This document shows positions 24,907-42,824 of a stretch of 43,465 nucleotides of DNA, one piece after another. Source of the DNA: Alphaproteobacteria bacterium (GTDB lineage: Bacteria > Pseudomonadota > Alphaproteobacteria > Micropepsales > Micropepsaceae). The translations under genes and the position numbers were made by a program. The notes beneath the pieces are model-generated. The model was not told the origin of the DNA and ran no database searches. It was given only the letters and a program-made list of their open reading frames with translations. Positions within the stretch are counted from its first letter, which is position 1; each line of letters begins with the position of its first letter. The stretch spans positions 1 through 43,465 of the forward strand of contig JAXDMY010000011.1 in NCBI GenBank assembly GCA_034665805.1. Direction: 5' to 3'.

Positions 24907-25117
24907 TTTCGTTCGGACGTTTCGATACCTTCTGTTTACTCTATTCCTAAAGCTTGAGTTAAACGTGTCATTAAGCTGTGCCCCCTATCTTGGGTTGTTC
25001 GCGAAAAGACATAGCGGGGTTATATGCGCGCGGCGCAATCGTTGTGGACGGCACAGCGGGGCTGGACCGGCAAATCCGAGGGTAAGGCCGATCTTTTGCT
25101 CGCCTTCGGAGGCACGT

Positions 25118-27169: not shown

Positions 27170-27255
27170 CGCGCTTCTCCTCATGCGGCCTTGCACCGCT
27201 CAACCCGCGGGGGTTACTAGCATCTCGACCCCAGCGAGATGCCGTTACGCCCGTC

Positions 27256-28533
27256 ATGATCATCGAGCCGTCGCCAGAAGGATCCCCTACGCCGGCCTGG
27301 CTTGCCCGGGTTCCGCGCGTCTTTCGGCACTATAATTACCGGCTGTTCTTCGCCGGCCAATTGGTCACCCTGCTAGGCACCTGGATTCAGAGCGTGGCTC
27401 TTTCCTGGCTGGTCTATCGGCTGACCCATTCCTTGATTCTGCTGGGTGTCGTCTCCTTCGTATCCCAGGCGCCGATTTTCTTCATTACTCCCTTTGCGGG
27501 CATGATCGCCGACCGCAACGACCGCCGTTCGGTTTTCATGGTCACGCGAGCTCTGTGTATGCTCCAGGCGGCCATCCTGACGGTGCTGACGCTCACCGAT
27601 CACGTCGAGATCAACGCCATCATCGTGCTCGCGCTGGCGCTCGGGATTATCACCGCCGTCGAAGTTCCCACGCGCCAGTCCTTCACCGTGGACATGGTCG
27701 GACGGGAGGATTTGCGCCAAGCAATCGCCTTCAACGCCATGATGTTCAATCTTGCGCGCACGGTTGGACCGGCGATCGGCGGTATCATCGTTGCAGCCAT
27801 CGGCGAAGGCCTGTGCTTCCTGCTGAACACCGTGTCTTACGGTGCGGTGTTGACGAGCCTGTTCCTGATGCGGCTCGAACGGCGCGGCGAACGTCCCACG
27901 AGCAAGCCGTGGGACGATTTGAAACAGGGGTTCTTCTATGTCACGCGCCATCCGCATTTGCGCATGGTGCTGTTCCTATCGGCGATCTGTTCCTGTTTCG
28001 GAACGTCCTATCTTGCCCTGATGCCCGCCTTTGCGCAGGATATCCTGCATCAGGGGGCGGATGGTCTGGGCTATGTCATCAGCGCTTTCGGCGCCGGCGC
28101 CGTTTCCGGAGCAGCGCTCGTCTCCAAGCTGCCCGAGCGCCATTTGCCGGTGACGCCGACCATCATGGCCGTGGTCTTGGGCGTGAGCCTGATCGGATTT
28201 GCCAACGCACATTCTCTCCTTGTTGCGGTCCTCCTGGTGGTACCGACGGGTTTTGCCTATCTCGGCATCGCCGTCTCCAGCAACACGCAGGTCCAGGCCC
28301 TTAGCGAGGACGCGATGCTGGGGCGGGTGATGGCGTTCTACGCCATGGGGGCGTTGGGCAGCCCGCCGCTTGGCGCATTGCTGCTGGGCTACATCTCCGA
28401 TCTTATCGGGGTGTCCAATGCGTTCATGATGAGCGGCGCTGTCTGCCTGATTGCGGCCGGCATCTCCCTGATGAGCTTGCGGCGTCGCGGCATGATGAAC
28501 CTGAACGAGCTCCCCGAAGGGCAGGAGCCATGA
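27256..28533 (+). CDS. MFS transporter, MFS_3 ('transmembrane secretion effector' / EntS-like) family
   Basis: 425 aa with about 12 hydrophobic helices. The N-terminus FRHYNYRLFFAGQLVTLLGTWIQSVALSWLVYRLT and the GMIADRNDRR loop are typical of this subfamily. Confidence 0.8.
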   Translation: MIIEPSPEGSPTPAWLARVPRVFRHYNYRLFFAGQLVTLLGTWIQSVALSWLVYRLTHSLILLGVVSFVSQAPIFFITPFAGMIADRNDRRSVFMVTRALCMLQAAILTVLTLTDHVEINAIIVLALALGIITAVEVPTRQSFTVDMVGREDLRQAIAFNAMMFNLARTVGPAIGGIIVAAIGEGLCFLLNTVSYGAVLTSLFLMRLERRGERPTSKPWDDLKQGFFYVTRHPHLRMVLFLSAICSCFGTSYLALMPAFAQDILHQGADGLGYVISAFGAGAVSGAALVSKLPERHLPVTPTIMAVVLGVSLIGFANAHSLLVAVLLVVPTGFAYLGIAVSSNTQVQALSEDAMLGRVMAFYAMGALGSPPLGALLLGYISDLIGVSNAFMMSGAVCLIAAGISLMSLRRRGMMNLNELPEGQEP

Positions 28534-30743
28534 GCGCCGAACACGCACCGGCGGAAATTTTGGGTGCGCTCCGCCACGCCACCGCATTGCATCAGGCGGG
28601 CCGGCTCGATGAAGCCGAACGCCTCTATCGCCAAGTGTTGGAAGCGGCGCCTGATCAGGCGGATGCCCTGAACTTTCTTGGCGTCCTGATGGCCCAAACA
28701 GGCAGGCCCCTGGAGGCTGCCGCACTGATCGATCGCGCGATCTCTTTCGACCCGACGAATGCGGGCGCCTTCTACAATCGCGGCAACGCCCTGCTCGATC
28801 TCAAGCGCTTCGATGAGGCGGTGGCAAGCTATGATTCCGCGCTTCTCATTCGAAGCGATCATCTGGGCGCGCTGATCAATCGCGGAGCCGCGTTACAGAA
28901 GCTGAACCGGCTGCAGGACGCTCTTTCCAGCTATGAACGTGGCCTCGCTTTGGACCCCAATTCGACGGCCCTGATGTTCAACAAAGGCAATACCCTGCGC
29001 GATCTCGGCCGTTTGGAAGAAGCGATCGCCGCCTATGATCGCGTTCTCCAACGAGAGCCCCAGCATCTCGGTGCCCTTAACAATCGCGGCGGCACATTCT
29101 TAAGAATGCGGCGGTTCGACCACGCCCTGGCCGATTACGACCGCGCAGCCGCGCTGTACCCCGCGGACGCCGAGAGGCATTACAACCGCGGCAACGCGCT
29201 CATCCGGTTGGGACGGAACGCCGAGGCGCTTGCTGCCTACGAACACGCGCTCGCTTTGAGGCCCGACTTTGCCGCCGCCCATCAGGCGCGGGGAAGCGCG
29301 TGTTCCGCCGCGGGCGATTATGAGAGGGCCTTTCTCGCCTATGACGCGGCCTTCCGGCTCGACCCCGATCTCGACTACCTCGAAGGCTACCGTCTTCACG
29401 CCAAGATGCATATTTGCGATTGGACGGCTCTGCCGGAAGAAATGGCCAGTCTCATTACCCATCTGCGCAGCGAAAAACGCGCGGTCGAACCCTTCATGCT
29501 TTTGCCGGTTAAGTCATCGGCCGAGGATCAGCTGCATTGCGCGCGCATCTATGCGGCGGACAGATATCCCTCCAATGCGTCCACGCTATGGAACGGTGAA
29601 AACTATCGGCACGACAAAATCCGCGTCGCCTATATGTCCGGCGAGTTCCGCGAACAGGCGACCTCCTATCTCACCGCCGATCTATTTGAATGCCACGACA
29701 GGACCGCATTCAGGGCTTACGGAATCGCCACCGGGGCGGGCGACGGCAGCCCGATGCGCAAGCGGCTCGAGAAAGGGTTCGATGTTTTCGCCGACATGAC
29801 GGCGCAATCCGATTTTGAGCTCGCGCATTTCATTCGCGAAGCGGAAATCGACATTCTGGTCAATCTCAACGGCTATTTCGGCCTGGACCGCACGGCGGTG
29901 TTCGCCGCGCGCCCCGCCCCCATCCAGGTCAATTACCTCGGTTATCCGGGCACCATGGGGGCGCCCTATATGGACTACATCATCGCCGATCGGCATGTGA
30001 TCCCCGATGACGAGCGCAGCCATTATTCGGAAAATGTGTGCCGTCTACCCGACACCTATCAACCCAACGACCGCAAGAAGCCCGTCAGCAGCAGAATCTT
30101 CAGCCGGGCCGAATGTGCCCTGCCTCAGACCGGAGTGATCTTCTGTTGTTTCAACAACAATCATAAAATCTTGCCGGACATCTTCGACGTCTGGATGCGC
30201 CTGCTCGCCGGCGTCGATGGAAGCGTGCTTTGGCTGCTCGAAGGAAACGCGGCGGTCAGGCGCAACCTGATGGCCGAAGCCGAGAAACGCGGGGTCTCGT
30301 CCGAGCGGCTCGTCTTCGCTCCCATGATGCCATTGGCGGATCATTTGGCGAGAGAAAGGCTGGCGGATATTTTTCTCGACACGCTTCCGCACAACGCGCA
30401 CACCACCGCGAGCGATGCGCTCTGGTGCGGCGTGCCACTGGTTACGTGCCTGGGCGGCACGTTTGCCGGACGGGTCGCAGCGAGCCTCTTGAATGCGATC
30501 GGGCTGCCGGAGCTGATCACCACATCGCTTGAGGATTATGAAATTCTGGCCCTGGAGCTGGCCCGCGATCCCGCGCGTCTTGATGCCGTCAAGGCCAAAC
30601 TCGACCGCAACCGGGACGGGTTCGCATTGTTCGACACGCCCCGCTTCACGCGATACATGGAAGAAGCCTATCGCATCATGTGGGAACGCGCCACGCATGG
30701 ACTGCCGCCGGCGGGCTTCGATGTGGAAACAGGGCGGCAATGA
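28530..30743 (+). CDS. TPR + GT41 (O-GlcNAc transferase / SPINDLY-like) protein, paralog 1 (737 aa, 8 TPRs)
   Basis: ATGA overlap with the MFS stop. Eight contiguous 34-aa TPRs (residues about 10-281), a CDW linker motif (HAKMHICDWTAL), then a catalytic region colinear with human OGT: RVAYMSGEFREQATSYL, RPAPIQVNYLGYPGTMGAPYMDYIIAD, FCCFNNNHKILP, ADIFLDTLPHNAHTTASDALWCGVPLVT, FAGRVAASLLNAIGLPELI. Confidence 0.85.
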   Translation: MSAEHAPAEILGALRHATALHQAGRLDEAERLYRQVLEAAPDQADALNFLGVLMAQTGRPLEAAALIDRAISFDPTNAGAFYNRGNALLDLKRFDEAVASYDSALLIRSDHLGALINRGAALQKLNRLQDALSSYERGLALDPNSTALMFNKGNTLRDLGRLEEAIAAYDRVLQREPQHLGALNNRGGTFLRMRRFDHALADYDRAAALYPADAERHYNRGNALIRLGRNAEALAAYEHALALRPDFAAAHQARGSACSAAGDYERAFLAYDAAFRLDPDLDYLEGYRLHAKMHICDWTALPEEMASLITHLRSEKRAVEPFMLLPVKSSAEDQLHCARIYAADRYPSNASTLWNGENYRHDKIRVAYMSGEFREQATSYLTADLFECHDRTAFRAYGIATGAGDGSPMRKRLEKGFDVFADMTAQSDFELAHFIREAEIDILVNLNGYFGLDRTAVFAARPAPIQVNYLGYPGTMGAPYMDYIIADRHVIPDDERSHYSENVCRLPDTYQPNDRKKPVSSRIFSRAECALPQTGVIFCCFNNNHKILPDIFDVWMRLLAGVDGSVLWLLEGNAAVRRNLMAEAEKRGVSSERLVFAPMMPLADHLARERLADIFLDTLPHNAHTTASDALWCGVPLVTCLGGTFAGRVAASLLNAIGLPELITTSLEDYEILALELARDPARLDAVKAKLDRNRDGFALFDTPRFTRYMEEAYRIMWERATHGLPPAGFDVETGRQ

Positions 30744-33100
30744 CCAACACAAAGCCCCCACAATCGCCTCCGCTCCGCGCGCATTTTCAAGCGCCGGGCT
30801 CCGATTTGATGACCAAACTGCGGCAGGCCTCCGGCTTGCATCAACAGGGGCGGCTTGGGGATGCCGAGCAGCTCTATCGCGAAGTCCTCGCCAAAGCCCC
30901 AGATCATCCCGATGCGCTGCATTTCCTGGGCGTGTTGGAAGTGCAGCGCGGGCGTCATGAGGCGGGGGTCGTCCTCATGGAGCGCGCCATCGCCATCAAC
31001 CCGCGCAATGCAGCGGCGCAGTACAATCGGGCGAACGCGCTGCACGATATGGGCCGGAGCGCGGAGGCCATCGCAGCTTACGATGCCGCGCTCTCGATCA
31101 ATCCGGACAATATCAGGGCCTGGAACAACCGCGGCGTCGCGTTGCAGACATTGACGCGCTATGATGAGGCCATTGCCAGTTATGATCGCGCGCTGGCGTT
31201 GAAATCTGATCATATCGACGCGCATGCCAATCGCGGCAACGCGTTGATGGAGCTTGGCCGTTACGCGGAAGCGTTGGCGGCCTATGACCGCACCGTTGCG
31301 CTGGCGCCCAACGACGTCGCGGGTCTTTATGGCCGCGCCAATGCGCTTGCGAAACTCGACCGGCTCGAAGACGCGGTTGCGTGTTATGACCGCGCGCTTA
31401 CCGTGAAGCCCGACGATTCTCAAATCCTCAACAATCGCGGCAACACGCTTTCGCAGCTCAGCCGTTACGAGGAAGCCATTGCCGATTTCGGTCGCGCGAT
31501 CGCTGCCTCACCCAACAGCGCGGATGCCTTCGCCAATCGCGGCGATGCCCTGATGCAGTTGAGACGGCATGAGGAAGCCCTGGAAAATTACCGCCGCGCG
31601 CTCGAGTTGAATGGGGGTTCCAACCACGCTCTCTATGGCCGCGGATCGGCCCTGGTGGAACTCAAGCGTCACGGCGAGGCGATTGCCGCATTGGACCGTT
31701 TGATGCGCCAGCGGCCCGATTACCCCTATGGCCTCGGAATGCTGGTTTACGCGCAATCGACCTGCTGCGATTGGCGCGACACCGCGCGCACAACCGAAAT
31801 GATCGAAGGCATACGCGCCGGAAAACGCGTGGCGACGCCGCTCGTTCTCCTGGCGGTTTGCGATTCCGAAGCGGAGAAATTGCGTTGTTCCGAGATCTTG
31901 ATGCAGGACAAGTTTCCGCCGCGAGATGCATTGTGGCGAGGCGAGATCTACCGTCACGATCGCATTCGCGTGGCCTATCTTTCCGCCGATTTGCGCACTC
32001 ATCCGGTCGGCATTCTCATGGCAGGCGTGTTCGAGCATCATGACCGGGCGCGTTTCGAGACGATCGCCATGTCCTATGGCTCGGACGACGGCGGCGACAT
32101 GCGCAGCCGGCTGAAGCGCGCATTCGACCGCTTTATCGATGTGCGGGGAAAGAGCGATTCCGAAGTGGCCTCGCTCCTGCGCGCACTCGAAGTCGATATC
32201 GCCGTCGATCTGACGGGGCTGACGGCAAGCGGACGCCCGGGAATATTTGCTCATCGGCCCGCGCCGGTGCAGGTGAATTATCTCGGCTTTGCCGGAAGCA
32301 TGGGCGCGCCCCACATGGACTACATCCTTGCCGACGAGACCGTCATCCCCGGGGGGCAGCAGCGATATTATGTCGAGAAGATCGCCTATCTTCCCGATAG
32401 CTATATGCCCCACGACAGGACGCGCCGCATCGCCGCGCATACCCCTTCCCGGTTGGAGCTGGGCCTGCCTGAAACGGGTTTTGTCTTTGCCTCTTTCAAC
32501 AACAGCTACAAATTCGCGGCCGCCATGTTCGACGTTTGGATGCGCCTGCTGCGTGCCGTCGAGGCGAGCGTGCTGTGGCTGCCGAACGCCAATCCCACTG
32601 CCATGCGCAATCTGCAACGCGAGGCAGACGCCCGGGGCGTCTCGCCCGAGCGCATCGTGTTCGCCCCGCATTTGCCCGCAAACGAAGATCACCTCGCCCG
32701 CCTGCGCTCCGCGGACCTGTTTCTCGACACCTTCCCTTATAATGCGCACAGCACGGCGCTGGATGCCCTTTGGGCGGGTTTACCGGTCCTCACCATAAAA
32801 GGAGAAAGTTTTGCTTCCCGCGTCGCTGCCAGCCTGTTGAGCGCGGCGGGATTGCCCGATTTGATTGTGGACTCCCTCGATGCCTACGAATCCCTAGCGC
32901 TCGATCTGGCGCGCAATCCAGCGGCGCTCGCTGCGCTTAAGGAAAAGCTCCGGCAGGGCCGCGATTCCTGTGCGCTGTTCGACACCGCACGGTTCACCCG
33001 TAATCTCGAAGTGGTCCTTGGAATGATGTGGGAGCGGGCACAAAAGGGCAAACCGCCCATCCCATTGTCGCACGACGATTCAGCACGCGCGTTTCCATGA
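30740..33100 (+). CDS. TPR + GT41 (OGT/SPINDLY-like) protein, paralog 2 (786 aa, 9 TPRs)
   Basis: The ATG at 30740 forms an ATGA overlap with the paralog 1 stop. Nine TPRs. YAQSTCCDWRD linker. RVAYLSADLRTHPVGILM, RPAPVQVNYLGFAGSMGAPHMDYILAD, FNNSYKFAA, YNAHSTALDALWAGLPVLT. Confidence 0.85.
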   Translation: MTNTKPPQSPPLRAHFQAPGSDLMTKLRQASGLHQQGRLGDAEQLYREVLAKAPDHPDALHFLGVLEVQRGRHEAGVVLMERAIAINPRNAAAQYNRANALHDMGRSAEAIAAYDAALSINPDNIRAWNNRGVALQTLTRYDEAIASYDRALALKSDHIDAHANRGNALMELGRYAEALAAYDRTVALAPNDVAGLYGRANALAKLDRLEDAVACYDRALTVKPDDSQILNNRGNTLSQLSRYEEAIADFGRAIAASPNSADAFANRGDALMQLRRHEEALENYRRALELNGGSNHALYGRGSALVELKRHGEAIAALDRLMRQRPDYPYGLGMLVYAQSTCCDWRDTARTTEMIEGIRAGKRVATPLVLLAVCDSEAEKLRCSEILMQDKFPPRDALWRGEIYRHDRIRVAYLSADLRTHPVGILMAGVFEHHDRARFETIAMSYGSDDGGDMRSRLKRAFDRFIDVRGKSDSEVASLLRALEVDIAVDLTGLTASGRPGIFAHRPAPVQVNYLGFAGSMGAPHMDYILADETVIPGGQQRYYVEKIAYLPDSYMPHDRTRRIAAHTPSRLELGLPETGFVFASFNNSYKFAAAMFDVWMRLLRAVEASVLWLPNANPTAMRNLQREADARGVSPERIVFAPHLPANEDHLARLRSADLFLDTFPYNAHSTALDALWAGLPVLTIKGESFASRVAASLLSAAGLPDLIVDSLDAYESLALDLARNPAALAALKEKLRQGRDSCALFDTARFTRNLEVVLGMMWERAQKGKPPIPLSHDDSARAFP

Positions 33101-35295
33101 GCGAGGCGTTGCTGCAAAACGCCTGGCGCTTGCATCAGGCAGGAAAACTCCCAGAGGCCGCGCGCCTTTATGCGGATGTTCTTCGCGAAAATCCCAGGAA
33201 TTTCGACGCTCTTTATCAGCTGGCGTTGATCTATCTCGCGAGCCGAAAATTCGCCGACGCCGAACGCCTGTTTGCCACGGCGGTTCAAATCAATTCGCAG
33301 TCCCCGGACCTCTTTTACAATCGCGGATGCGCGTTGCAGGGTTTGGGCCGGAACAATGATGCGCTGGCCGCATTCGCCCATGCGCTCGCCATGAGGCCGG
33401 ATTTCGCGGAAGCGCGCAACAATCGGGGAGTGACGCTGCTCGCGATGAGGCGCCACCGCGAGGCTCTTGCGTGTTTCGACAGAGTCGCCGCGGAGAAACC
33501 GGGCATCGCGATGGTGCACAACAACCGTGCCATGGCGTTCCTCGGCCTTCAGCAGCCCGAGCAAGCGCTTGCCGCGGCCGGTCTTGCGTTGGGAATCGAT
33601 CCCGATAACGCCGAAGCCCTCTACCATCAAGGCGCTGCCTTAACCGCCCTTGGCCGCCACCAGGATGCGCTTGCAGATTTCGACAAGGCTCTGTCGATCA
33701 ACCCCGATTACGTCGAAGCACTTATCCATCGCGGTATCGTGTTTGCGTTATTGGGCCGCCACGAGGAAGCCGTCGCGAGCTACAGCAAAGCGCTCGCCTT
33801 GCGCCCCGGAGACATCGACATTCTGTACAACCGAGGCACGTCGTTCTGGGCTCTGCGGCGCTTCGAGGAAACGATCCTCGATTGCGAGCAGGTTCTGAAG
33901 GTCGATCCGCAATTCAAATATGCGCGGGGCAATCTCTTGCACTCAAAGCTTCAGTGCTGCGACTGGCGCGGGCTGGAGGACGAGAAAGCCATGATCGCGT
34001 CCGGTCTGAAAGCATCTCGTCGAGTCCTGCGTCCGCTCCAGAATGTCGCCATCTCGAGCTCGGGCGAGGCTCTGCTGCAATCCTCGCGCATATGGATGTC
34101 CCATGAATGCCCGCCATCGGAGAAGCCCTTGTGGCGAGGCGAGCGCTACCATCACGACCGCATCCGCATTGCTTATGTGTCCGCCGATTTTCGGCTTCAT
34201 CCGGCCGCGACGCTCAGCGCGGGAGTTTTCGAACATCACGACCGCAGCCGTTTCGAGACGATTGCGATATCGCTCGGCGCCGACGATGGGATGGGCATGC
34301 GCGAACGCATGCAAAACGCATTCGAGCGTTTCATCGACGTCCGCAACCGAAGCGATGAAGAGATCGCCAAGCTCTTGCGCGACATGGAGATCGACATCGC
34401 GGTCGATATGATGGGCTTCACGGAAAACGCACTAACGGCGATCTTCGCGCGCCGCCCCGCCGGCCTGCAGGTGAACTATCTCGGCTACCCCGGCACGATG
34501 GGCGCGCCCTATATGGACTACATCCTGGCCGACCGAATCCTCATCCCGCCATCGCATCAGGCCGATTACGAGGAAAAAATTGCTTATCTGCCAGACACTT
34601 ACATGCCAAATGACGGCACGAGACCGATTGCGGAACGCACCCCTTCGCGCGCCGAAGCGGGCCTGCCCGATAGCGGTTTCGTGTTCTGCACCTTCAACAA
34701 TCTCTACAAGATCACGCCCGAGATGTTCGCCCTCTGGATGCGGTTGCTCGTTGGGATCGAGAACAGCGTGCTTTGGCTGTCGCAAGCCAATCCTACAGCC
34801 ATTCGCAATCTCAGGCGCGAAGCGGAAGGTCAAGGAATCTCCGGCGAGCGGATTCTGTTCGCGCCCTTTGTTCGCGCCCCTGATGAGCATCTGGCGCGGC
34901 TGCGTCTCGCGGACCTATTTCTGGACACCCTGCCCTACAATGCGCACGCCACGGCATGCGATGCGTTATGGGCGGGAGTCCCAGTCGTCACACTAACCGG
35001 ATCGAGCTTTGCCGGCCGCGTCGGCACCAGCCTGCTTTCGGCCCTAGGGTTGCCGGAACTGATCGCCGATACGCCGGCGGCGTATGAAGCCATCGCCTTC
35101 GATCTCGCACGAAATCCAAGCCTGTTGACGGAGGTCAAGGGAAAGCTCGCGCGCAACCGCGAAACGCAGCCGCTTTTCGATACGGCGCGCTACACCCGCA
35201 ATCTGGAAACCGCCTATTCCATGATGTGGCGGCGCCATCAGAATGGCGATCCCCCCGCGAGCATTGCCGTGGATGCGACGACTGCTTCGCCATGA
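33097..35295 (+). CDS. TPR + GT41 (OGT/SPINDLY-like) protein, paralog 3 (732 aa, 8 TPRs)
   Basis: The ATG at 33097 forms an ATGA overlap with the paralog 2 stop. N-terminus MSEALLQNAWRLHQAGKLPEAARLY. HSKLQCCDWRG linker. RIAYVSADFRLHPAATL, LQVNYLGYPGTMGAPYMDYILAD, FNNLYKITP, YNAHATACDALWAGVPVVT. Confidence 0.85.
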   Translation: MSEALLQNAWRLHQAGKLPEAARLYADVLRENPRNFDALYQLALIYLASRKFADAERLFATAVQINSQSPDLFYNRGCALQGLGRNNDALAAFAHALAMRPDFAEARNNRGVTLLAMRRHREALACFDRVAAEKPGIAMVHNNRAMAFLGLQQPEQALAAAGLALGIDPDNAEALYHQGAALTALGRHQDALADFDKALSINPDYVEALIHRGIVFALLGRHEEAVASYSKALALRPGDIDILYNRGTSFWALRRFEETILDCEQVLKVDPQFKYARGNLLHSKLQCCDWRGLEDEKAMIASGLKASRRVLRPLQNVAISSSGEALLQSSRIWMSHECPPSEKPLWRGERYHHDRIRIAYVSADFRLHPAATLSAGVFEHHDRSRFETIAISLGADDGMGMRERMQNAFERFIDVRNRSDEEIAKLLRDMEIDIAVDMMGFTENALTAIFARRPAGLQVNYLGYPGTMGAPYMDYILADRILIPPSHQADYEEKIAYLPDTYMPNDGTRPIAERTPSRAEAGLPDSGFVFCTFNNLYKITPEMFALWMRLLVGIENSVLWLSQANPTAIRNLRREAEGQGISGERILFAPFVRAPDEHLARLRLADLFLDTLPYNAHATACDALWAGVPVVTLTGSSFAGRVGTSLLSALGLPELIADTPAAYEAIAFDLARNPSLLTEVKGKLARNRETQPLFDTARYTRNLETAYSMMWRRHQNGDPPASIAVDATTASP

Positions 35296-37376
35296 ACGAT
35301 GCGCTGATCCGCAAGGCGTTCGATTCCCATCGTGCGGGCCGGCTTGCTGAAGCGGAGCGGCTCTATGGCGAGATCCTCGTTGCCGAACCCCGCCATCTCG
35401 ACGCATTGTTCCTGCTCGGCTCGCTGCATTTCCAGCGCGGCGACTTGGCAGCGGCACTCACGCGCTTCGACCAGGCGCTGGCGATCAAACCGGACATGCC
35501 CGATGCGCACGCCGCGCGGGGGGCTGCGCTTTCGAGCCTGAACCGCCATCAGGACGCGCTCGCAGCCTATGACCGGGCGTTGGCGGTGCGCCCTAGCCAT
35601 GTGCCGGCGCTGAACAACCGGGGTAATGCGCTGCTGGCGCTGAAACGCGACGCCGAGGCGGTTGCGAGCTACGACAAGGCTCTCGCCATCAAGCCCGATT
35701 ATCCCGATGCCTGGCGCAATCGCGGAACCGCGCTGCTGCAGCTCGCGCGCTTGGACGAAGCGCTTGCCAGTTTCGATCGCGCGCTGGGATTGCAGCCCGA
35801 TTTCGCCGATGCATGGGAAGATCGCGCCGGCACATTGATGCGTCTTTCCCGCCGCGAAGAGGCCGCGGCCGCTTACGACAAGGCCATCGCACTCAAGCCG
35901 GACAACCCCGATCTCCTCTACAATCGCGGCAACGTCCTGTCGATTTTGAAACGCTATGAAGAAGCCATCCGCGACTGCGAAAAGCTTCTCGCCATTGCGC
36001 CCGATTATCCTTATGCGCGCGGTGTGCTCGTCCATTCCAAGCTGCAATGTTGCGACTGGCGGTCGCTGGACGAAGAGAAAGCGAAAATCGGCGCGGCCCT
36101 GAAAGCGGGAAAGCGCGTCGTCTCGCCCTTCAATTTGAAGGCGCTGTCGGATTCGCCCAGCGAGCAGCTGCGTTGCGCCCAGCTCTGGGTCGCGCATGAG
36201 GTTCCGCCTTCACCCACCCCTTTATGGGGTGGGGAACCCTACCACCACGGCCGCATCCGGCTCGCCTATATCTCCGCCGATTTCAACAATAGCGCCGTCG
36301 CCACGCTGATGGCCCCTGTGTTTGAACATCATGATCGCAGCCGTTTCGAATCCATCGCTGTCGCTTTCGGTCCGGCCGAGAAGACACCGATGCGCGTGCG
36401 TCTCGAATCGGCATTCGAACGCTTTCACGATCTGCGCACGCAAAGCGATTTGGATATCGCGGCAGCCTTGCGCGAAATGGAAGTCGATATTGCCGTGGAT
36501 CTCATGGGGTTCACCGGGGAATGCCGCAGCGCCATTTTCGCCCATCGCCCTGCCCCGCTGCAGGTGAATTATCTGGGCTTTCCCGGAACGATGGGCGCGC
36601 CTTATATCGACTACATTGTCGCCGACCCGACCGTGATCCCGGAAGAGCACCAGCACTTCTACGCGGAGAAGATCGCCTATCTTCCCGATTGCTATTTGCC
36701 CAGCGACCCCGCGCGTTCCATCGCCACGCCGCCCTCGCGCCGCGAGGCCGGCCTGCCCGAAAAGGGATTCGTCTTCGCCTCCTTCAACAACAGCTATAAA
36801 TTTTCCGCAGCAATCTTCGACATCTGGATGCGGCTGCTCAGCGCCATCGAGGATAGCGTGCTCTGGCTGCCGCAGAACAACGCGTCAGCCATGCGCAATC
36901 TCGCCCGCGAGGCGCAAACGCGCGGGGTGGCGGCGACGCGCATCGTGTTCGCGCCGCCCATACAAGCCGCGGACCAACATCTTGCCCGGCTTTCGCTGGC
37001 CGATCTGTTCCTGGACACGCTCCCCTACAACGCCCACACCTCCGCGTGCGATGCGCTGTGGGCCGGCGTTCCGCTGCTGACCCTATTGGGCAATAGCTTC
37101 GCCGGACGGGCCGCTGCCAGCGCCTTGACCGCCGTGGGACTGCGGGGCCTGATCGCGCATACGCCACCCGCCTATGAAGCGATGGCATTGTCGCTGGCGC
37201 GCAATCCCGAAGCGCTCGCCGAGATGAGAGGCCAGCTCGCACGCAACCGCGACGCTTCACCCCTGTTCGATCCGGCGCGATTCACCCGCCACCTGGAACG
37301 CGCATTCGAAACCATGTGGGCGCGGCATCAGAAGCGCGAACCACCCGCGAGCTTTGCTGTCGCACGCAGCGGCTAA
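35292..37376 (+). CDS. TPR + GT41 (OGT/SPINDLY-like) protein, paralog 4 (694 aa, 7 TPRs)
   Basis: The ATG at 35292 forms an ATGA overlap with the paralog 3 stop. Seven TPRs. HSKLQCCDWRS linker. RLAYISADFNNSAVATLM, LQVNYLGFPGTMGAPYIDYIVAD, FNNSYKFSA, YNAHTSACDALWAGVPLLT. Confidence 0.85.
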   Translation: MNDALIRKAFDSHRAGRLAEAERLYGEILVAEPRHLDALFLLGSLHFQRGDLAAALTRFDQALAIKPDMPDAHAARGAALSSLNRHQDALAAYDRALAVRPSHVPALNNRGNALLALKRDAEAVASYDKALAIKPDYPDAWRNRGTALLQLARLDEALASFDRALGLQPDFADAWEDRAGTLMRLSRREEAAAAYDKAIALKPDNPDLLYNRGNVLSILKRYEEAIRDCEKLLAIAPDYPYARGVLVHSKLQCCDWRSLDEEKAKIGAALKAGKRVVSPFNLKALSDSPSEQLRCAQLWVAHEVPPSPTPLWGGEPYHHGRIRLAYISADFNNSAVATLMAPVFEHHDRSRFESIAVAFGPAEKTPMRVRLESAFERFHDLRTQSDLDIAAALREMEVDIAVDLMGFTGECRSAIFAHRPAPLQVNYLGFPGTMGAPYIDYIVADPTVIPEEHQHFYAEKIAYLPDCYLPSDPARSIATPPSRREAGLPEKGFVFASFNNSYKFSAAIFDIWMRLLSAIEDSVLWLPQNNASAMRNLAREAQTRGVAATRIVFAPPIQAADQHLARLSLADLFLDTLPYNAHTSACDALWAGVPLLTLLGNSFAGRAAASALTAVGLRGLIAHTPPAYEAMALSLARNPEALAEMRGQLARNRDASPLFDPARFTRHLERAFETMWARHQKREPPASFAVARSG

Positions 37377-37398
37377 TTGTGCTTCGATCGTTTTCACC

Positions 37399-40092
37399 AT
37401 GAACGACCTCATCCTGCAGAACGCGTGGCGGCTGCACCAGGCGGGCAATTTCGCCGAGGCGGCGCGGCTCTATAATGACGTGCTGCGGATAAATCCGCGT
37501 CATGTCGGAGCCCTGCAGATGCTTGGCTTCCTTCATTTCCAACGCGGCGAATTCGGGGAAGCGGAACGCATCATGGAGAAGGCCGTCAAGCTGGATCCGA
37601 AATCGGTCGATGCGCTCTACAACCGCGGTTGCGCGCTTCAGGCCTTGAACCGGTCGAAGGAAGCGCTGACCTGTTTCGATCGCGCGTTGGCGCTCAAGCC
37701 CGACTACGCGCCGGCGATGCTCAATCGCGGCAATGTCCTCTCCCAGATGGGCCGTTTCGCCGATGCGCTGGCAAGTTACGATCTGGCGCAGGCGCTGATG
37801 CCCGCCTCGGCAGAGCTTACGATGAACCGCGGCAATGCGCTGTTCGAGCTCGAACGCTATGCCGAAGCGCTTGCCAGCTACGATGCGGCGCTCAAGCAAG
37901 ACCTTAGCGAACCGCTGCTTTGGAACAATCGCGGCAATGCGCTGAGCGAACTTGGCCGGCATCAGGATGCGGTCGCGAGTTTCACCCGGGCCTTGGCGCT
38001 CGAGCCCGCCTATGTGGATGCCTTGGTGAATCGCGGCAACGCCTTCGTCAAACTTGCGCGCGACGTCGAGGCGCTTGCCGATTTCACCAAGGCCCTTGTC
38101 ATCGAGCCCGACAATATCGAGGCGCTGGATAGCCGGGGCCATTTGCTGCTCAGGGGAAAGCGGGCCATCGAAGCGCTCGCCTCGTTCGATCGCATCCTGG
38201 TGCTCGACCCTGAGCATGGCGAAGCGGCGAGCGGGCGCGCAGTCGCACTCATCGAACTGAAACGCGACGGGGAAGCCCTCGCCGCCTTCGATTCTGCTCT
38301 TCAGATCGCCGAGAGCGCCGAGGTCCTCAGCAACCGCGCGAGCGCGCTGGTGCGTCTGAAACGCCATGAGGAGGCGTTGGCGAGTTCTGATCGCGCCCTT
38401 GCGCTGGATCCCACCTTTGGAGCGGCGTGGCACAACCGCGGCAGCGCCTTGGCGGGGCTGAAGCGGTACAAGGAGGCGCTCGTCTGTTACGACAAGGCGC
38501 TCGTTCTCTCGCCGGAGAGTCCCAGCACATGGAACAATCGCGGTGCGACCATGCTGTCATTGAAGCAGGATGAGGCGGCGCTCCCCTATTTCGAGACCGC
38601 GTTACGGCTCAACCCAGAGGACGCCGACTCCTGGAGCAATCGCGCGCGCGCGTTCTCGAGCCTCAAGCGCTTCCCGGACGCTATCGCCGATAGCGAGAGA
38701 GCGCTCGCGCTTGATCCTAAGCACGCGGCCGCGCTTCGCATTGGTATTCATTCGCGCCTTCACGCTTGCGATTGGCGGCGGCGGGACGAGGACAAAAAGC
38801 GGATCACCGTCGGCCTGATGTCCGGATCGCGGGTTATCGAGACGCTCGATCACCGGGGTCTGTGCGATTCGGAAGAGGAGAATCTTGCCGCCGCGCGGCT
38901 TTGGGTGGCCGACGAATGCCCGCCTGCGGCCAATCCATTATGGCGCGGAGAGCGCTACCGCCACGACAGAATCCGCATCGCCTATCTCTCGACCGATTTT
39001 CGTGCCCATGCCGTCGCCTCTCTGATCGTCGGCATCTTCGAGCATCATGACAAAGACCGTTTCGAGACCACCGCCATCTCGTTCGGCCGCGACGACAAAA
39101 GCGAAATCCGTGCGCGCATCGAAACCGCCTTCGACCGGTTCATCGACGTGGCCGAGATCAGCGATTCCGAGGTCGCCGCGATGATGCGCGAAATGGAGAT
39201 CGACATCGCGATCGATCTCAACGGCTATACGGGGGACCCGCGCACGGGAATTCTCGCGCATCGGCCGGCCCCGGTGCAGGTGAACTATCTCGGTTATCCC
39301 GGCACCATGGGCGCGCCCTATATCGACTACATCATCGCCGACCGCATCGTCATCCCGGAAGGCCAGCAAAGCCATTACAGCGAAAGAATCGCCTATCTGC
39401 CCGATGCCTATCAAGCCAATGACCGCAAGCGCCGTGTCGCGGATCGGACACCGACCCGAACCGAAGCCGGATTGCCGGAGCACGGCTTCGTCTTCGCCTC
39501 CTTCAACAACACCTACAAGATCGGACCGGAGGTCTTCGAGGTCTGGATGCGGCTGCTACGCGGCATCGATGGCAGCGTGTTGTGGCTGCTGGAAGACAAT
39601 TCCATCGCGGCGGCGAACGTCCGGCGCGAAGCCCAGCTGCGCGGGATCGCGCCCGAACGGCTCATCTTCGCGCCGCGCGCCAAACCGGACGAGCATCTGG
39701 CGCGCCATTCGCTTGCCGACCTCTTCCTCGACACGCTTCCCTACAACGCCCATACGACCGCCAGCGATGCCCTCTGGATGGGATTGCCGCTGGTGACATG
39801 TCCCGGCAGCACCTTCCCGGGCCGCGTCGGCGCCAGCCTGTTGCACGCGATCGGCCTACCCGAGCTGGTGACGGATACTCTTGCGGACTACGAAGCGCTG
39901 GCGTTGGAACTGGCGCGCGAGCCCGCTGCACTGTCCGCGATCAAGGCGAAGCTCGCGGCCAATCGCGACGCCTTTCCGATGTTCGACACGGCGCGGTTCA
40001 CGAAACTCCTCGAAGCCGCCTATGCGACGATGTGGGAACGCCAGCAACGCGGCGACGCGCCGGAGAGTTTCTCGGTACCGGCGATCCCCTAA
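37399..40092 (+). CDS. TPR + GT41 (OGT/SPINDLY-like) protein, paralog 5 (897 aa, 13 TPRs)
   Basis: The ATG at 37399 is supported by N-terminal homology to paralog 3 (MNDLILQNAWRLHQAGNFAEAARLY). 22-nt gap after paralog 4. Thirteen TPRs. HSRLHACDWRR linker. RIAYLSTDFRAHAVASL, VQVNYLGYPGTMGAPYIDYIIAD, FNNTYKIGP, YNAHTTASDALWMGLPLVT. Confidence 0.85.
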   Translation: MNDLILQNAWRLHQAGNFAEAARLYNDVLRINPRHVGALQMLGFLHFQRGEFGEAERIMEKAVKLDPKSVDALYNRGCALQALNRSKEALTCFDRALALKPDYAPAMLNRGNVLSQMGRFADALASYDLAQALMPASAELTMNRGNALFELERYAEALASYDAALKQDLSEPLLWNNRGNALSELGRHQDAVASFTRALALEPAYVDALVNRGNAFVKLARDVEALADFTKALVIEPDNIEALDSRGHLLLRGKRAIEALASFDRILVLDPEHGEAASGRAVALIELKRDGEALAAFDSALQIAESAEVLSNRASALVRLKRHEEALASSDRALALDPTFGAAWHNRGSALAGLKRYKEALVCYDKALVLSPESPSTWNNRGATMLSLKQDEAALPYFETALRLNPEDADSWSNRARAFSSLKRFPDAIADSERALALDPKHAAALRIGIHSRLHACDWRRRDEDKKRITVGLMSGSRVIETLDHRGLCDSEEENLAAARLWVADECPPAANPLWRGERYRHDRIRIAYLSTDFRAHAVASLIVGIFEHHDKDRFETTAISFGRDDKSEIRARIETAFDRFIDVAEISDSEVAAMMREMEIDIAIDLNGYTGDPRTGILAHRPAPVQVNYLGYPGTMGAPYIDYIIADRIVIPEGQQSHYSERIAYLPDAYQANDRKRRVADRTPTRTEAGLPEHGFVFASFNNTYKIGPEVFEVWMRLLRGIDGSVLWLLEDNSIAAANVRREAQLRGIAPERLIFAPRAKPDEHLARHSLADLFLDTLPYNAHTTASDALWMGLPLVTCPGSTFPGRVGASLLHAIGLPELVTDTLADYEALALELAREPAALSAIKAKLAANRDAFPMFDTARFTKLLEAAYATMWERQQRGDAPESFSVPAIP

Positions 40093-40094
40093 CT

Positions 40095-42824
40095 CTATTG
40101 CGGCGTGGGGCCCTGGCTGACCCGCACTAGATCGCCGGGACGCACCCATTTCCTGAACGCGGCCTGCACATCCGCAGGACTCAGCGCGATGTAGCGCCGG
40201 GCAGCATTTGTCGGCTCATCGAGCGGCAAATCCAGCTCCCAGCGGCCGGCAAGCGCGCGCGCAATGCGCCCGACGCTGGATTCGCCCAAAGGCATCTCGC
40301 GAAGCATCAAAGCCTTGGTCCGTTGCAGTTCATCGGCGCCCACAGGCGTATCCTGCATCTGCTTGAGCTCTTGCACGATGATGGCGTGGGCCTTGGAGAC
40401 ATTTTCCGGATCGGAGGCGAATTGCACAATGTAATTGCCGCGTGTCTTACCGGCGTTCAGATCGGAACCGACCGAATAGACCAACCCGGCATTCTTTCTC
40501 AGATCGATGGAAAGCCGCGTGGCATAGAAGCTGCCGCCAAGCACGCCATTGCCCAATTGCAGCGCATAATAATCGGGATCGGAACGCGTGATGCCCATGT
40601 TCTGCGCCAAAATAACGCTGTCCTGGACCCGGCTTTCATCGGGCACCGCGACCACATTGGCTTTGTTCGGCGGCGCGGTTGGCAAATCCGTGGAGGGCTT
40701 GGGACCTTCGGCCTTCCAGCCGCCGAAATATTTCTCGATCTCCGTGCGGGCGCGCTCCGGCGTGATGCGGCCTATCACCACGATGCTGGCAAGATCAGGC
40801 CGGAAGGCGGTGCGGTAATAGCCCTTGACGTCATCGATGGTGATCGAGCGCACGCTTTCGGGCGTCGCATCGCGCAAGGTCGGATCGCCTTTCGGGTACA
40901 ATGCCTCGCGCAGAGAGCGCTGCATCAAATAGCCGGGGCTCTTAAGCTGTGCCGCCACGACGCGCGCCACCTGTCCCTTGATGACCTCCAGCGCGTCTTT
41001 CGGCAAAGCGGGATGGAGCTCATTGTCGGCCAAGAGCTCGACGCCGCGGTCAAGATCACGCGTAAGGACTTGGATAGAAAAGTCGGTGCCGGCATCTTCC
41101 TCCGCGCCGATTTTATCCAGCGCTTCCTGGAACGCGATCCGATCGAGTTTTTCGCTGCCATAATCGAAGAGCTGGGAGATCACCTGCGACATGCCTTCCT
41201 TGCCCTGGGGCACCAGAAGCTCGGGGCGCGTCTTGATATGGCCATAGACGGTGACCGTGTCGCTGACGTCTTCGGGCTGCACAATGAGCGTCAGCCCATT
41301 GGACAGCGTGGTCACGGTGGGATGGATGGTGGAAGCGGGCACGTTCAGCCGGCTCAATGCGCTCTCCGCCCAATCGGGAAGAGTGGTCGGCTTTGCCTCT
41401 CCCAGCGAGATGGCCTCCTGGCCGCCGAAGCCGTTGGAAGCGACCGGCCGTCCGCCGCCACGCGGCACCAGCACGGCCGAAACCGCGCGGTTGAGATTGA
41501 GATAGGCCCTCGCCACGCGGTTCACGTCGGCGACGGTGACCTTCTTGATTCGCTCTAGATCTTCGTCGGGCGAACGCAGATTGTAGACCGCCACTGCCTC
41601 CGACCAGATCGAGGCGAGGCCCGCGATCGAGTTCTTCTGGAATTCCGCTTGGCGCTCTTCCTGAACCTTCGCGGCCTCCACGAGATCGGCCGGTACGCCC
41701 TGATCGAGGATCTTCTGCAGCGTGGTGCGAAGCTCCGTCGCGGCCGCCTTGGCATCGCCGTCGGCGGGGAAGGCAAGCGTGGCATAGGCCATGCCGACCT
41801 TAGGCAGCGGATTGAGAGAAAAGCCCGTCGAGAGCGCCTTGCCTTCCGGCACGAGGGCGAACAGATCGCTCCGCTCGCTATTCAGCACGTCGGAAAGAAC
41901 TTCGAGCGCGGGAAAATCCGGGCTTTCGAGACCGGGTATCCGCGTCGCCAGCACCGTCGTTCCGTTGGCGGTGTTGGTAGGAACGGTAAAGGGCTCTGTC
42001 GCCGCGATCGGCTTGGGATTGATCCCCGGATGGACCGGAAGGGTCTTGCGCGGGATCGAGCCGAACATGGTCCGCACTTTGGCGAGCGTCGCCTGTGGAT
42101 CGAGATCGCCAACCACCACCAGGATGGCGTTATTGGGCGCGTACCATTTGTCGTAAAACGCCTTCAGCATGGGGCCGGTGGTCTTGTCGAAGGACGGCCG
42201 CGTGCCGAGCGCATCGTGCTCATAGGGCGTGCCGGCGAACATGATCTCCCGCAATTTGGAGAACAGGACGTAATTGGGGCTCGAAATATCCTGCGCCACT
42301 TCCTGTTCGATGGCGCCACGCTCCTCGCCCCAATCCTTATCCGTATCATTCACGGCACGCATCCGGATCGCTTCGATATTCAGCGCAATATCGAGGTCTT
42401 CGGATGGGACGGTGAAAAGATATTGCGTCAGGTTCTCGCGCGTATTGGCGTTGAAATTGCCGCCCATGACGCTGCCGATATTGGCGAGCTGATCGGCCGT
42501 GAGGCCCGGGCTGCCGCGGAACATCATATGTTCCTGCGCATGCGCCATGCCGGGAAATCCATCGGGCGCATCGTTGGAGCCGGCGAGATAATTCACCGAG
42601 GTCGCAACCACGGGCGCAAGTGTGTTGCGCACCAGGATCACGCGAAGCCCGTTCGGCAGGGTCGCACGAAGAACACCAGGCTCGGTTACGGGCTGCCGGG
42701 TGGCCGCGGGCGCGGAGGGCGTCCAGACAAGATTTGCGATGCCAAAAGCGGCGACGGCAAGACCGCCCGCCAAGGCACTGGCCAAACCAAACCGGCGCGC
42801 ATGTTTCGCGCGAGAATTGCCCAT
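40095..42824 (-). CDS. M16 (pitrilysin/insulinase) family zinc peptidase, four-domain fused form, secreted
   Basis: 909 aa. N-terminal signal-like MGNSRAKHARRFGLASALAGGLAVAAFGIANL. Inverted zincin motif GMAHAQEHMMFRG (HxxEH). A second M16-like half lacks the motif. Confidence 0.85.
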   Translation of the reverse strand: MGNSRAKHARRFGLASALAGGLAVAAFGIANLVWTPSAPAATRQPVTEPGVLRATLPNGLRVILVRNTLAPVVATSVNYLAGSNDAPDGFPGMAHAQEHMMFRGSPGLTADQLANIGSVMGGNFNANTRENLTQYLFTVPSEDLDIALNIEAIRMRAVNDTDKDWGEERGAIEQEVAQDISSPNYVLFSKLREIMFAGTPYEHDALGTRPSFDKTTGPMLKAFYDKWYAPNNAILVVVGDLDPQATLAKVRTMFGSIPRKTLPVHPGINPKPIAATEPFTVPTNTANGTTVLATRIPGLESPDFPALEVLSDVLNSERSDLFALVPEGKALSTGFSLNPLPKVGMAYATLAFPADGDAKAAATELRTTLQKILDQGVPADLVEAAKVQEERQAEFQKNSIAGLASIWSEAVAVYNLRSPDEDLERIKKVTVADVNRVARAYLNLNRAVSAVLVPRGGGRPVASNGFGGQEAISLGEAKPTTLPDWAESALSRLNVPASTIHPTVTTLSNGLTLIVQPEDVSDTVTVYGHIKTRPELLVPQGKEGMSQVISQLFDYGSEKLDRIAFQEALDKIGAEEDAGTDFSIQVLTRDLDRGVELLADNELHPALPKDALEVIKGQVARVVAAQLKSPGYLMQRSLREALYPKGDPTLRDATPESVRSITIDDVKGYYRTAFRPDLASIVVIGRITPERARTEIEKYFGGWKAEGPKPSTDLPTAPPNKANVVAVPDESRVQDSVILAQNMGITRSDPDYYALQLGNGVLGGSFYATRLSIDLRKNAGLVYSVGSDLNAGKTRGNYIVQFASDPENVSKAHAIIVQELKQMQDTPVGADELQRTKALMLREMPLGESSVGRIARALAGRWELDLPLDEPTNAARRYIALSPADVQAAFRKWVRPGDLVRVSQGPTPQ

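Follow-up and report, generated by a model that had tools for sequence, protein, structure and literature searches.

Two conserved GT41 subfamilies with a replaced acceptor-site histidine in a tandem glycosyltransferase operon of a soil alphaproteobacterium

The window analysed here is a stretch of 43,465 nucleotides, contig C11 of a soil metagenome-assembled genome (MAG; 1.96 Mb, 56% complete; G000); its close protein and locus matches bear the name Micropepsaceae bacterium. The region 27256-40092 on the + strand is an operon in which an MFS_3 transporter gene is followed by five genes (paralogs 1 to 5, or P1 to P5) encoding tetratricopeptide repeats (TPRs) and a GT41 glycosyltransferase domain. 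The acceptor-site histidine of GT41, usually accompanied by the equivalent of Asp554 of human OGT (hOGT), is present in paralogs 2, 3, and 5 and is replaced in paralog 1 (Glu/Gln) and in paralog 4 (Asp/Ser). The evidence speaks more for two ancient subfamilies, upheld by selection, in which the Asp554/His558 element has been redesigned than for degraded copies. Judged from sequence, both paralogs have most likely kept catalytic competence and acquired a changed specificity.

The acceptor-site column

All five paralogs match Pfam PF13844 (Glyco_transf_41) with 251-291 bits against a cut-off of 25 bits, and several TPR families are matched in the N-terminal array of each. In NCBIfam only TPR models match the paralogs, the catalytic domain being without a model. 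Alignment columns are named here after hOGT residues. The column under study is that of the His in SSDFGNHPT of hOGT and of residue 218 of Xanthomonas campestris XcOGT in HMMER alignments. A preliminary description of the window had reported an alignment without gaps at this point, and this holds: RVAYMSGEFREQATSYL of paralog 1 lies on rvgyvssdfgnhptshl of hOGT and on rvgfvsngfgahptgll of XcOGT, and the surroundings of the motif are also gap-free among the five window proteins. The five codons read as that description gave them. Paralog 1 (28530..30743, on the + strand as are all five; motif SGEFREQATSYL) has CAG, encoding Gln376, at 29655..29657, and the alignments to hOGT and XcOGT agree with the earlier statement that Glu replaces the preceding Asp (Glu372, 29643..29645, at the Asp554 column). 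Paralog 4 (35292..37376; SADFNNSAVATL) has AGC, encoding Ser, at 36291..36293. The codon is CAT for His in paralog 2 (30740..33100; SADLRTHPVG, 32000-32002), paralog 3 (33097..35295; SADFRLHPAA, 34198-34200), and the long-TPR paralog 5 (37399..40092; STDFRAHAVA, 39007-39009). Paralogs 1 and 4 are assigned to a Glu/Gln and an Asp/Ser-or-Thr subfamily, respectively, on the basis of Pfam matches, the tree, AlphaFold2 (AF2) models, and Foldseek, and in the case of paralog 1 also of the alignments.

The preliminary description had named the residue His498, which is wrong: the column is that of His558, and the preceding aspartate is Asp554. In the hOGT chain the His has index 568 and the Lys of FNQLYK index 852 (1046-residue numbering), equal to 558 and 842 in the 1036-residue numbering. 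We use the name His558 because this index agrees with anchors from four papers. S553, D554, and H558 adjoin in the N-Cat lobe of hOGT (PMC4840301); T560, Q839, Y841, and K842 fix the numbering further (PMC2556091); His498 belongs to 495-VHPH-498 (PMC10466321); and in plant SPINDLY (SPY), D491 and H495 are the equivalents of D554 and H558, with Leu439 at the His498 column (PMC9715652). In the hOGT sequence, His498 is located in this VHPH about 60 residues upstream of the His558 column.

The preliminary description had also stated that mutation of this residue strongly impairs activity, and for the His558 equivalents it does (PMC4840301, PMC4703063, PMC9715652). D554A and H558A of hOGT each lower the glycosylation of Nup62, and the D554H_H558D swap abolishes Ser/Thr glycosylation while HCF-1 cleavage is kept (PMC4840301), a cleavage that runs via glutamate glycosylation (PMC6240873). 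The H558F mutant of hOGT is reported to be inactive yet binds UDP-GlcNAc, and H596F of the Drosophila enzyme (DmOGT) has 3% activity (PMC4703063). SPY is dead with H495A or H495F and active with D491A; its authors regard the His as structural and the α-phosphate of the donor as the base (PMC9715652). A molecular-dynamics study places His558 among the residues that hydrogen bond to the acceptor peptide (PMC8085782), and according to a review the structures of bacterial homologues pointed to His558 as the base and the human structure to His498 (PMC4330554). His558 and Asp554 are both kept in human OGT, fly OGT, and plant SPINDLY, and XcOGT keeps the His; this His is conserved in the characterised GT41 members and lies outside the formal PF13844 family definition. 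Its exact role has been under debate since 2008. His558 is an important acceptor-side residue and not an established catalytic base.

Conservation of the replacing residues

The best 120 hits of the paralog 1 catalytic region, together with the five window proteins, gave 144 domains: 89 Glu/Gln, 43 Asp/His, 7 Glu/His, one each of Asn/His, Asp/Ser, and Glu/Ala, and 2 with gaps. From the best 120 hits of paralog 4 came 140 domains, divided into 56 Asp/Ser, 17 Asp/Thr, 52 Asp/His, 8 with gaps, and 7 others. Among the 62 domains nearest to the paralog 4 catalytic domain (identity about 64.4% or more), 61 are without His (46 Ser, 14 Thr, and 1 Gly); the sole His is in the lowest-ranked of them (P0192, 64.3% identity).

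A FastTree phylogeny (LG model, midpoint-rooted) was built from 255 unique full-length domains, after removal of duplicates, of rows under 420 residues, and of database entries that are copies of the window proteins. Paralog 1 falls inside a clade of 79 tips (support 0.997), 78 of them Glu/Gln and one Glu/Ala; the surrounding clade of 92 tips (support 0.918) includes six Glu/His and one Asp/His. Paralog 4 falls inside a His-free clade of 72 tips (53 Ser, 17 Thr, and 2 Gly; support 0.971), which is nested with Asp/His domains of the paralog 2 type (92 tips, support 0.883). Gln is paired with Asp in none of the 255 domains, a pattern that probably reflects one or very few events.

At the DNA level, a pattern coding for exactly GEFREQAT was found in none of 400 other alphaproteobacterial genomes sampled over 208 families, a pattern that misses variants of the motif and so undercounts; within the genus, a looser pattern of the GEFREQAT type, which undercounts for the same reason, matched 5 of 20 genomes. 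A loose pattern for Asp-x-x-x-Ser/Thr in the genus was dropped, as it matched the reversed-pattern control and demanded a Gly before the Asp. Close matches to the paralog 4 catalytic domain are present in 14 of 15 other sampled genomes of the genus and in 6 of 45 genomes of the family outside it.

The ratio of nonsynonymous to synonymous substitution rates (dN/dS; Nei-Gojobori) was calculated for the catalytic domains of P1 to P4 against orthologues in two genomes, G057 (dS 0.62-0.70) and G045 (dS only 0.12-0.19). Against G057 the values are 0.148 (P1), 0.127 (P2), 0.160 (P3), and 0.153 (P4); against G045 they are 0.31, 0.21, 0.17, and 0.17 in the same order. Purifying selection on P1 and P4 equals that on their His-bearing neighbours P2 and P3. 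Constraint is not relaxed; the replacing residues are fixed clade-wide and dN/dS is about 0.15.

Gene order, drawn from genome searches and extracted genome loci, is conserved as well. A gene of the P2 type (His) is followed by genes of the P3 type (His), the P4 type (Ser/Thr), and the P5 type (His) in four genomes (G001, G033, G009, and G016), and three more (G045, G057, and G048) show part of the same array order as far as their contigs reach. The place of paralog 4 in the array is unchanged in seven or more genomes of the genus. A Glu/Gln gene between MFS_3 and the P2-type gene is found only in the window, G045, and G057.

These observations bear on a rival explanation of the replacements, namely recent decay, an error of sequencing or assembly, or mis-alignment. 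The MAG is 56% complete and paralogous repeats do make chimeric joints in public contigs, which would favour an artefact. The same residues are, however, present in orthologues from independent genomes and in about 70-90 metagenome clusters for each subfamily, the frames are open, dN/dS is about 0.15, and the alignment is gap-free near the column. A contig from an independent soil run (X2, 29401-29827, 0 differences) and the orthologues in G045 and G057 all have the same Gln codon. In contigs of four runs the Ser codon is covered by the probable source run (0 differences) and by one divergent contig, whose differences are partly shown. Decay or error is effectively refuted by the clade-wide conservation, the orthologues, and dN/dS, and we give it next to no credence.

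Contigs of the soil metagenome runs X1-X4 contain, over window positions 29400-36500, many joints that skip forward or go back between paralogs. Most likely these joints are chimeric assemblies from repeated GT41 sequence, and they call for caution with MAG-based counts of GT41 genes.

Surrounding columns and the function of paralogs 1 and 4

AF2 modelled the catalytic domains with confidence, giving a predicted local distance difference test score (pLDDT) of 91.2 and a predicted template modelling score (pTM) of 0.90 for paralog 1, and of 89.2 and 0.89 for paralog 4. The order of secondary structure elements is identical in both, and the variant residue is the last residue of the loop between strand 87-93 and helix 100-111. 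Foldseek matches both models to XcOGT with a template modelling (TM) score of 0.90 (root-mean-square deviation 2.1-2.6 Å), to animal OGTs (0.88-0.92; hOGT 0.88-0.90), to TtOGT (0.80), and to SPY (0.76-0.81). As modelled, the two-lobe GT-B fold is kept in paralogs 1 and 4.

The motifs FNNxYK and NAHT(T/S) had been described as retained in all five paralogs. The Lys is indeed present in all five; the motifs themselves are not invariant, with FNNNHK in paralog 1, NAHST in paralog 2, and NAHAT in paralog 3. The equivalents of Lys842, His901/Arg904, His920, and Asp925 are present in all five, and among the homologues 85 of 86 Glu/Gln domains and all 71 of 71 Asp/Ser-or-Thr domains retain those of Lys842, His920, and Asp925. 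At the Thr921 column, paralog 2 has Ser and paralog 3 has Ala; given NAHAT in paralog 3, even a His-bearing paralog therefore deviates from the canonical donor site. NAHAT is also found in the listed orthologues of paralog 3.

Further differences cluster around the site. His545-Lys546 of paralog 1 (30162..30167, + strand) align with Tyr841 and Lys842, so that the lysine is kept and the Tyr841 column is His. His621 of paralog 1 (30390..30392, + strand) is at the Cys917 column, where paralogs 2-5 have Tyr. The residues at the Tyr841/Cys917 columns of the 86 Glu/Gln domains are His/His in 54, Tyr/Val in 14, Phe/Cys in 8, Phe/His in 6, and other pairs in 4; Tyr/Tyr is found in 70 of the 71 Asp/Ser-or-Thr domains, and only 1 of 84 Asp/His domains has His at both columns. 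The Thr560 column is Thr in 80 of 86 Glu/Gln domains, Val in 71 of 71 Asp/Ser-or-Thr domains, and Val (50) or Thr (29) in most Asp/His domains; in the window it is Thr in P1, Val in P2, P4, and P5, and Ala in P3. No paralog of the window agrees with XcOGT or with hOGT at every one of these positions. We take the Cys917 column, too, to be within the active site. Thr560 touches the sugar (PMC2556091), and Tyr841 was an earlier candidate base and hence is at the reaction centre (PMC9715652, PMC4330554). The pattern of the columns would fit a sugar/acceptor pocket that is sub-functionalised across the array. Each replacement may stem from a single event; a statistical test of the covariation is not possible.

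The two His residues of paralog 1 suggest that one or both might have taken over the role of His558, in which case paralog 1 would be an ordinary O-glycosyltransferase with a re-wired but equivalent site. The enrichment of the His pair in the Glu/Gln domains (54/86 versus 1/84) and the position of Tyr841, proposed as a candidate base and so at the reaction centre (PMC9715652, PMC4330554), are in line with this. The preliminary description had named another His in the same spatial position as evidence that would tell against altered catalysis, and for paralog 1, whose clade usually has His at the Tyr841 and Cys917 columns, homology supplies part of such evidence. One or both of the His residues are, however, absent from 32 of the 86 Glu/Gln domains, including a second copy in the same genome (contig C57; FNNAYK, LPVNAH), so the Glu/Gln state does not require a relocated His, and the explanation is inapplicable to paralog 4, which is Tyr/Tyr. 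We regard a relocation of the His558 function in paralog 1 as very unlikely.

Paralogs 1 and 4 had been proposed to be catalytically altered. They do differ at a functionally important active-site position; degeneration is unsupported, because the replacements are fixed in their clades, purifying selection equals that on the His-bearing neighbours, and the donor-binding residues are intact. On balance we think it probable that both are active GT41 enzymes with a changed acceptor and/or donor. In the paralog 1 subfamily, which is old, Glu/Gln stands as a unit for the Asp/His pair; the Tyr841 and Cys917 columns are then usually both His, and Thr is retained at the Thr560 column. The paralog 4 subfamily descends from paralog-2-like ancestors and has retained the Asp, with Ser or Thr where those have His. 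Glu/Gln can plausibly keep the carboxylate-plus-hydrogen-bond-donor arrangement of Asp/His, and the Ser/Thr variant may leave a smaller, hydroxyl-bearing pocket. With the acceptor/sugar pocket remodelled in this way, the acceptor would be predicted to differ from the usual one, and the donor sugar may differ as well. Paralogs 1 and 4 would be co-expressed with the canonical paralogs, and the tandem paralogs would split the labour on one or several substrates. A more specific and unlikely form of this proposal is that both subfamilies have changed their acceptor chemistry or donor, for example to a carboxylate or amide nucleophile, and together with the canonical paralogs make a multi-step or multi-sugar product that is handled by the MFS_3 exporter and the M16 peptidase encoded beside them; the idea of such a nucleophile takes its hint from the hOGT D554H_H558D swap, which keeps HCF-1 cleavage.

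An alternative is that paralogs 1 and 4 are conserved GT41 proteins with little or no catalysis, which bind the nucleotide sugar and/or the substrate via the TPRs and have a regulatory, scaffolding, or partner role towards the paralogs that carry the His. As this alternative would have it, OGT and SPY are strongly impaired once the equivalent His is mutated (PMC4703063, PMC4840301, PMC9715652), and hOGT H558F still binds UDP-GlcNAc (PMC4703063). Four ATGA overlaps join MFS_3 and P1-P4, a coupling typical of genes whose products are made in fixed ratios and a circumstantial hint at a heteromer. A second such hint is that one polypeptide can accommodate two working GT41 domains: TPR-GT41 units are naturally fused in pairs in proteins of 1250-1290 amino acids (P0006-P0017, P0022, P0126, and others), and in the source genome a 1354-amino-acid open frame (C155:886-4947, + strand) fuses two such units. 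In the fusions seen, however, both halves have Asp/His at the Asp554/His558 columns, never Gln or Ser/Thr. The replacing residues (Glu and Gln; Ser or Thr) are themselves conserved, which argues for a role and not for mere loss, and the Lys842 equivalent, whose loss classically kills OGT, is kept in all. Paralog 1 is also not an obligate neighbour of the array, because only the window, G045, and G057 have it beside the array and a further Glu/Gln copy (motif SGEFREQAT) is located elsewhere, on C57. We consider such a non-catalytic or weakly catalytic partner role less likely than that of an active enzyme.

Several points weigh against active enzymes of changed specificity. Loss of the His severely lowers transfer in every GT41 enzyme tested, and a natural Gln or Ser could by analogy mean very low activity, because H558A, H558F, DmOGT H596F, and SPY H495A/F are impaired. 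Purifying selection and an intact ligand site are seen in conserved pseudo-enzymes too, and dN/dS with residue retention cannot separate an active enzyme from one that only binds the donor. The homologue sets are the best hits of paralogs 1 and 4, and the proportions in them are not family-wide frequencies. That Asp-to-Glu came before His-to-Gln is only suggested, because the tree is midpoint-rooted.

In the literature on residue names and on GT41 phylogeny we met no natural GT41 subfamily without this His, although no search was aimed at them. Two natural, long-lived subfamilies offer ready-made test cases for the role of His558 and for a change of acceptor or donor in GT41. A missing His558 alone should not label a bacterial GT41 gene as inactive.

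Genomic setting and known GT41 systems

The operon has a GC content of about 62% with even composition. Among 24 listed sequencing runs there was no RNA run that covers it. The MFS_3 (EntS-like) transporter gene (27256..28533, + strand; Pfam and NCBIfam) ends in a TGA that overlaps the ATG of paralog 1, the first of four consecutive ATGA start/stop overlaps (MFS/P1 at 28530, P1/P2 at 30740, P2/P3 at 33097, and P3/P4 at 35292); the ATG of paralog 5 is 22 nucleotides past the stop of paralog 4. Upstream is a PAS/HisKA/HATPase_c sensor histidine kinase gene by Pfam (24965..27169, + strand, the bounds of its longest open reading frame, ORF), which has the same place in the G001, G009, and G048 loci. 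Downstream and convergent is a gene for a two-domain M16 (pitrilysin/PqqF-like) peptidase (40095..42824, - strand; Pfam), a conserved neighbour of the array with the same place in the G033, G009, and G016 loci. The order across the genus (loci L025-L030; window 24965-42824) is LUD-domain genes, histidine kinase, MFS_3, GT41 array, and convergent M16 peptidase; MFS_3 precedes the array in 6 of 6 related loci examined. In the search for related loci, 2 of 11 were close. The LUD-domain genes are lactate-utilisation-like. An exporter and a peptidase beside glycosyltransferases might indicate a processed, exported product, and no space for a small precursor gene is seen within the operon. Elsewhere in the window, an ORF of 620 amino acids (9693-11555, - strand) has a CRP-like cyclic-nucleotide-binding region at its N-terminus, joined to a patatin-like phospholipase domain; its weak NCBIfam matches include RssA and the cyclic GMP-AMP (cGAMP)-activated phospholipase of CBASS (cyclic oligonucleotide-based antiphage signalling systems).

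GT41 domains are greatly expanded in the genus, with up to 18-19 matches per genome at E ≤ 1e-100, often in tandem arrays of 3-6. In the source genome, a profile built from the catalytic domains of the five paralogs detects at least 15 complete or partial GT41 catalytic domains, spread over six contigs (C11, C57, C64, C125, C155, and C194); of the 13 that span the column, 10 have His, 2 Gln, and 1 Ser. The arrays of these genomes, in which strong GT41 domain matches number as many as 19, are conserved and follow an exporter gene.

Among characterised enzymes, XcOGT (X. campestris XCC0866; PDB 2JLB, 2VSY, 2VSN, and 2XGM/O/S) resembles the paralogs in its short TPR array joined to a GT-B domain of family GT41 without the metazoan intervening domain. 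It matches the paralog 1 catalytic domain with a phmmer E-value of 3e-80, its identity to paralogs 1 and 4 in Foldseek is 36-39%, and the FNNxYK lysine, the HxxR motif, and NAHTT...D are common to both. XcOGT differs in having His at 218 (Gln in paralog 1, Ser in paralog 4) and Gly at the Asp554 column. It is encoded by a single gene that is not known to belong to a tandem array. The human and Drosophila OGTs share the TPR and GT41 organisation (TM 0.88-0.92) and the equivalents of Lys842, His901, Arg904, His920, Thr922, and Asp925. Unlike them, the paralogs are without the intervening domain, and all five have Asn in place of Gln839 and a residue other than Lys at the Lys898 column. The His498 column of hOGT is Val in paralog 1 as aligned by HMMER, in a region of low confidence, and Asp554/His558 become Glu/Gln in paralog 1 and Asp/Ser in paralog 4.

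Arabidopsis SPINDLY, a protein O-fucosyltransferase that uses GDP-fucose and has Leu439 and Ala664 at the His498 and Tyr841 columns (PMC9715652), is a precedent for remodelling of the GT41 active site with a changed donor or acceptor. It keeps the Asp491/His495 pair, however, the very pair that is changed in paralogs 1 and 4. Thermobaculum terrenum TtOGT (PDB 5DJS) is, like the paralogs, a bacterial TPR and GT41 protein (TM 0.80); its activity could not be shown in vitro despite an intact site (PMC4683255), which advises caution with assays. Unlike the paralogs, the N-glycosyltransferases of the HMW1C/ApNGT type are without TPRs. They belong to the same CAZy family GT41 and use the amide of Asn as the acceptor nucleophile (PMC10466321).

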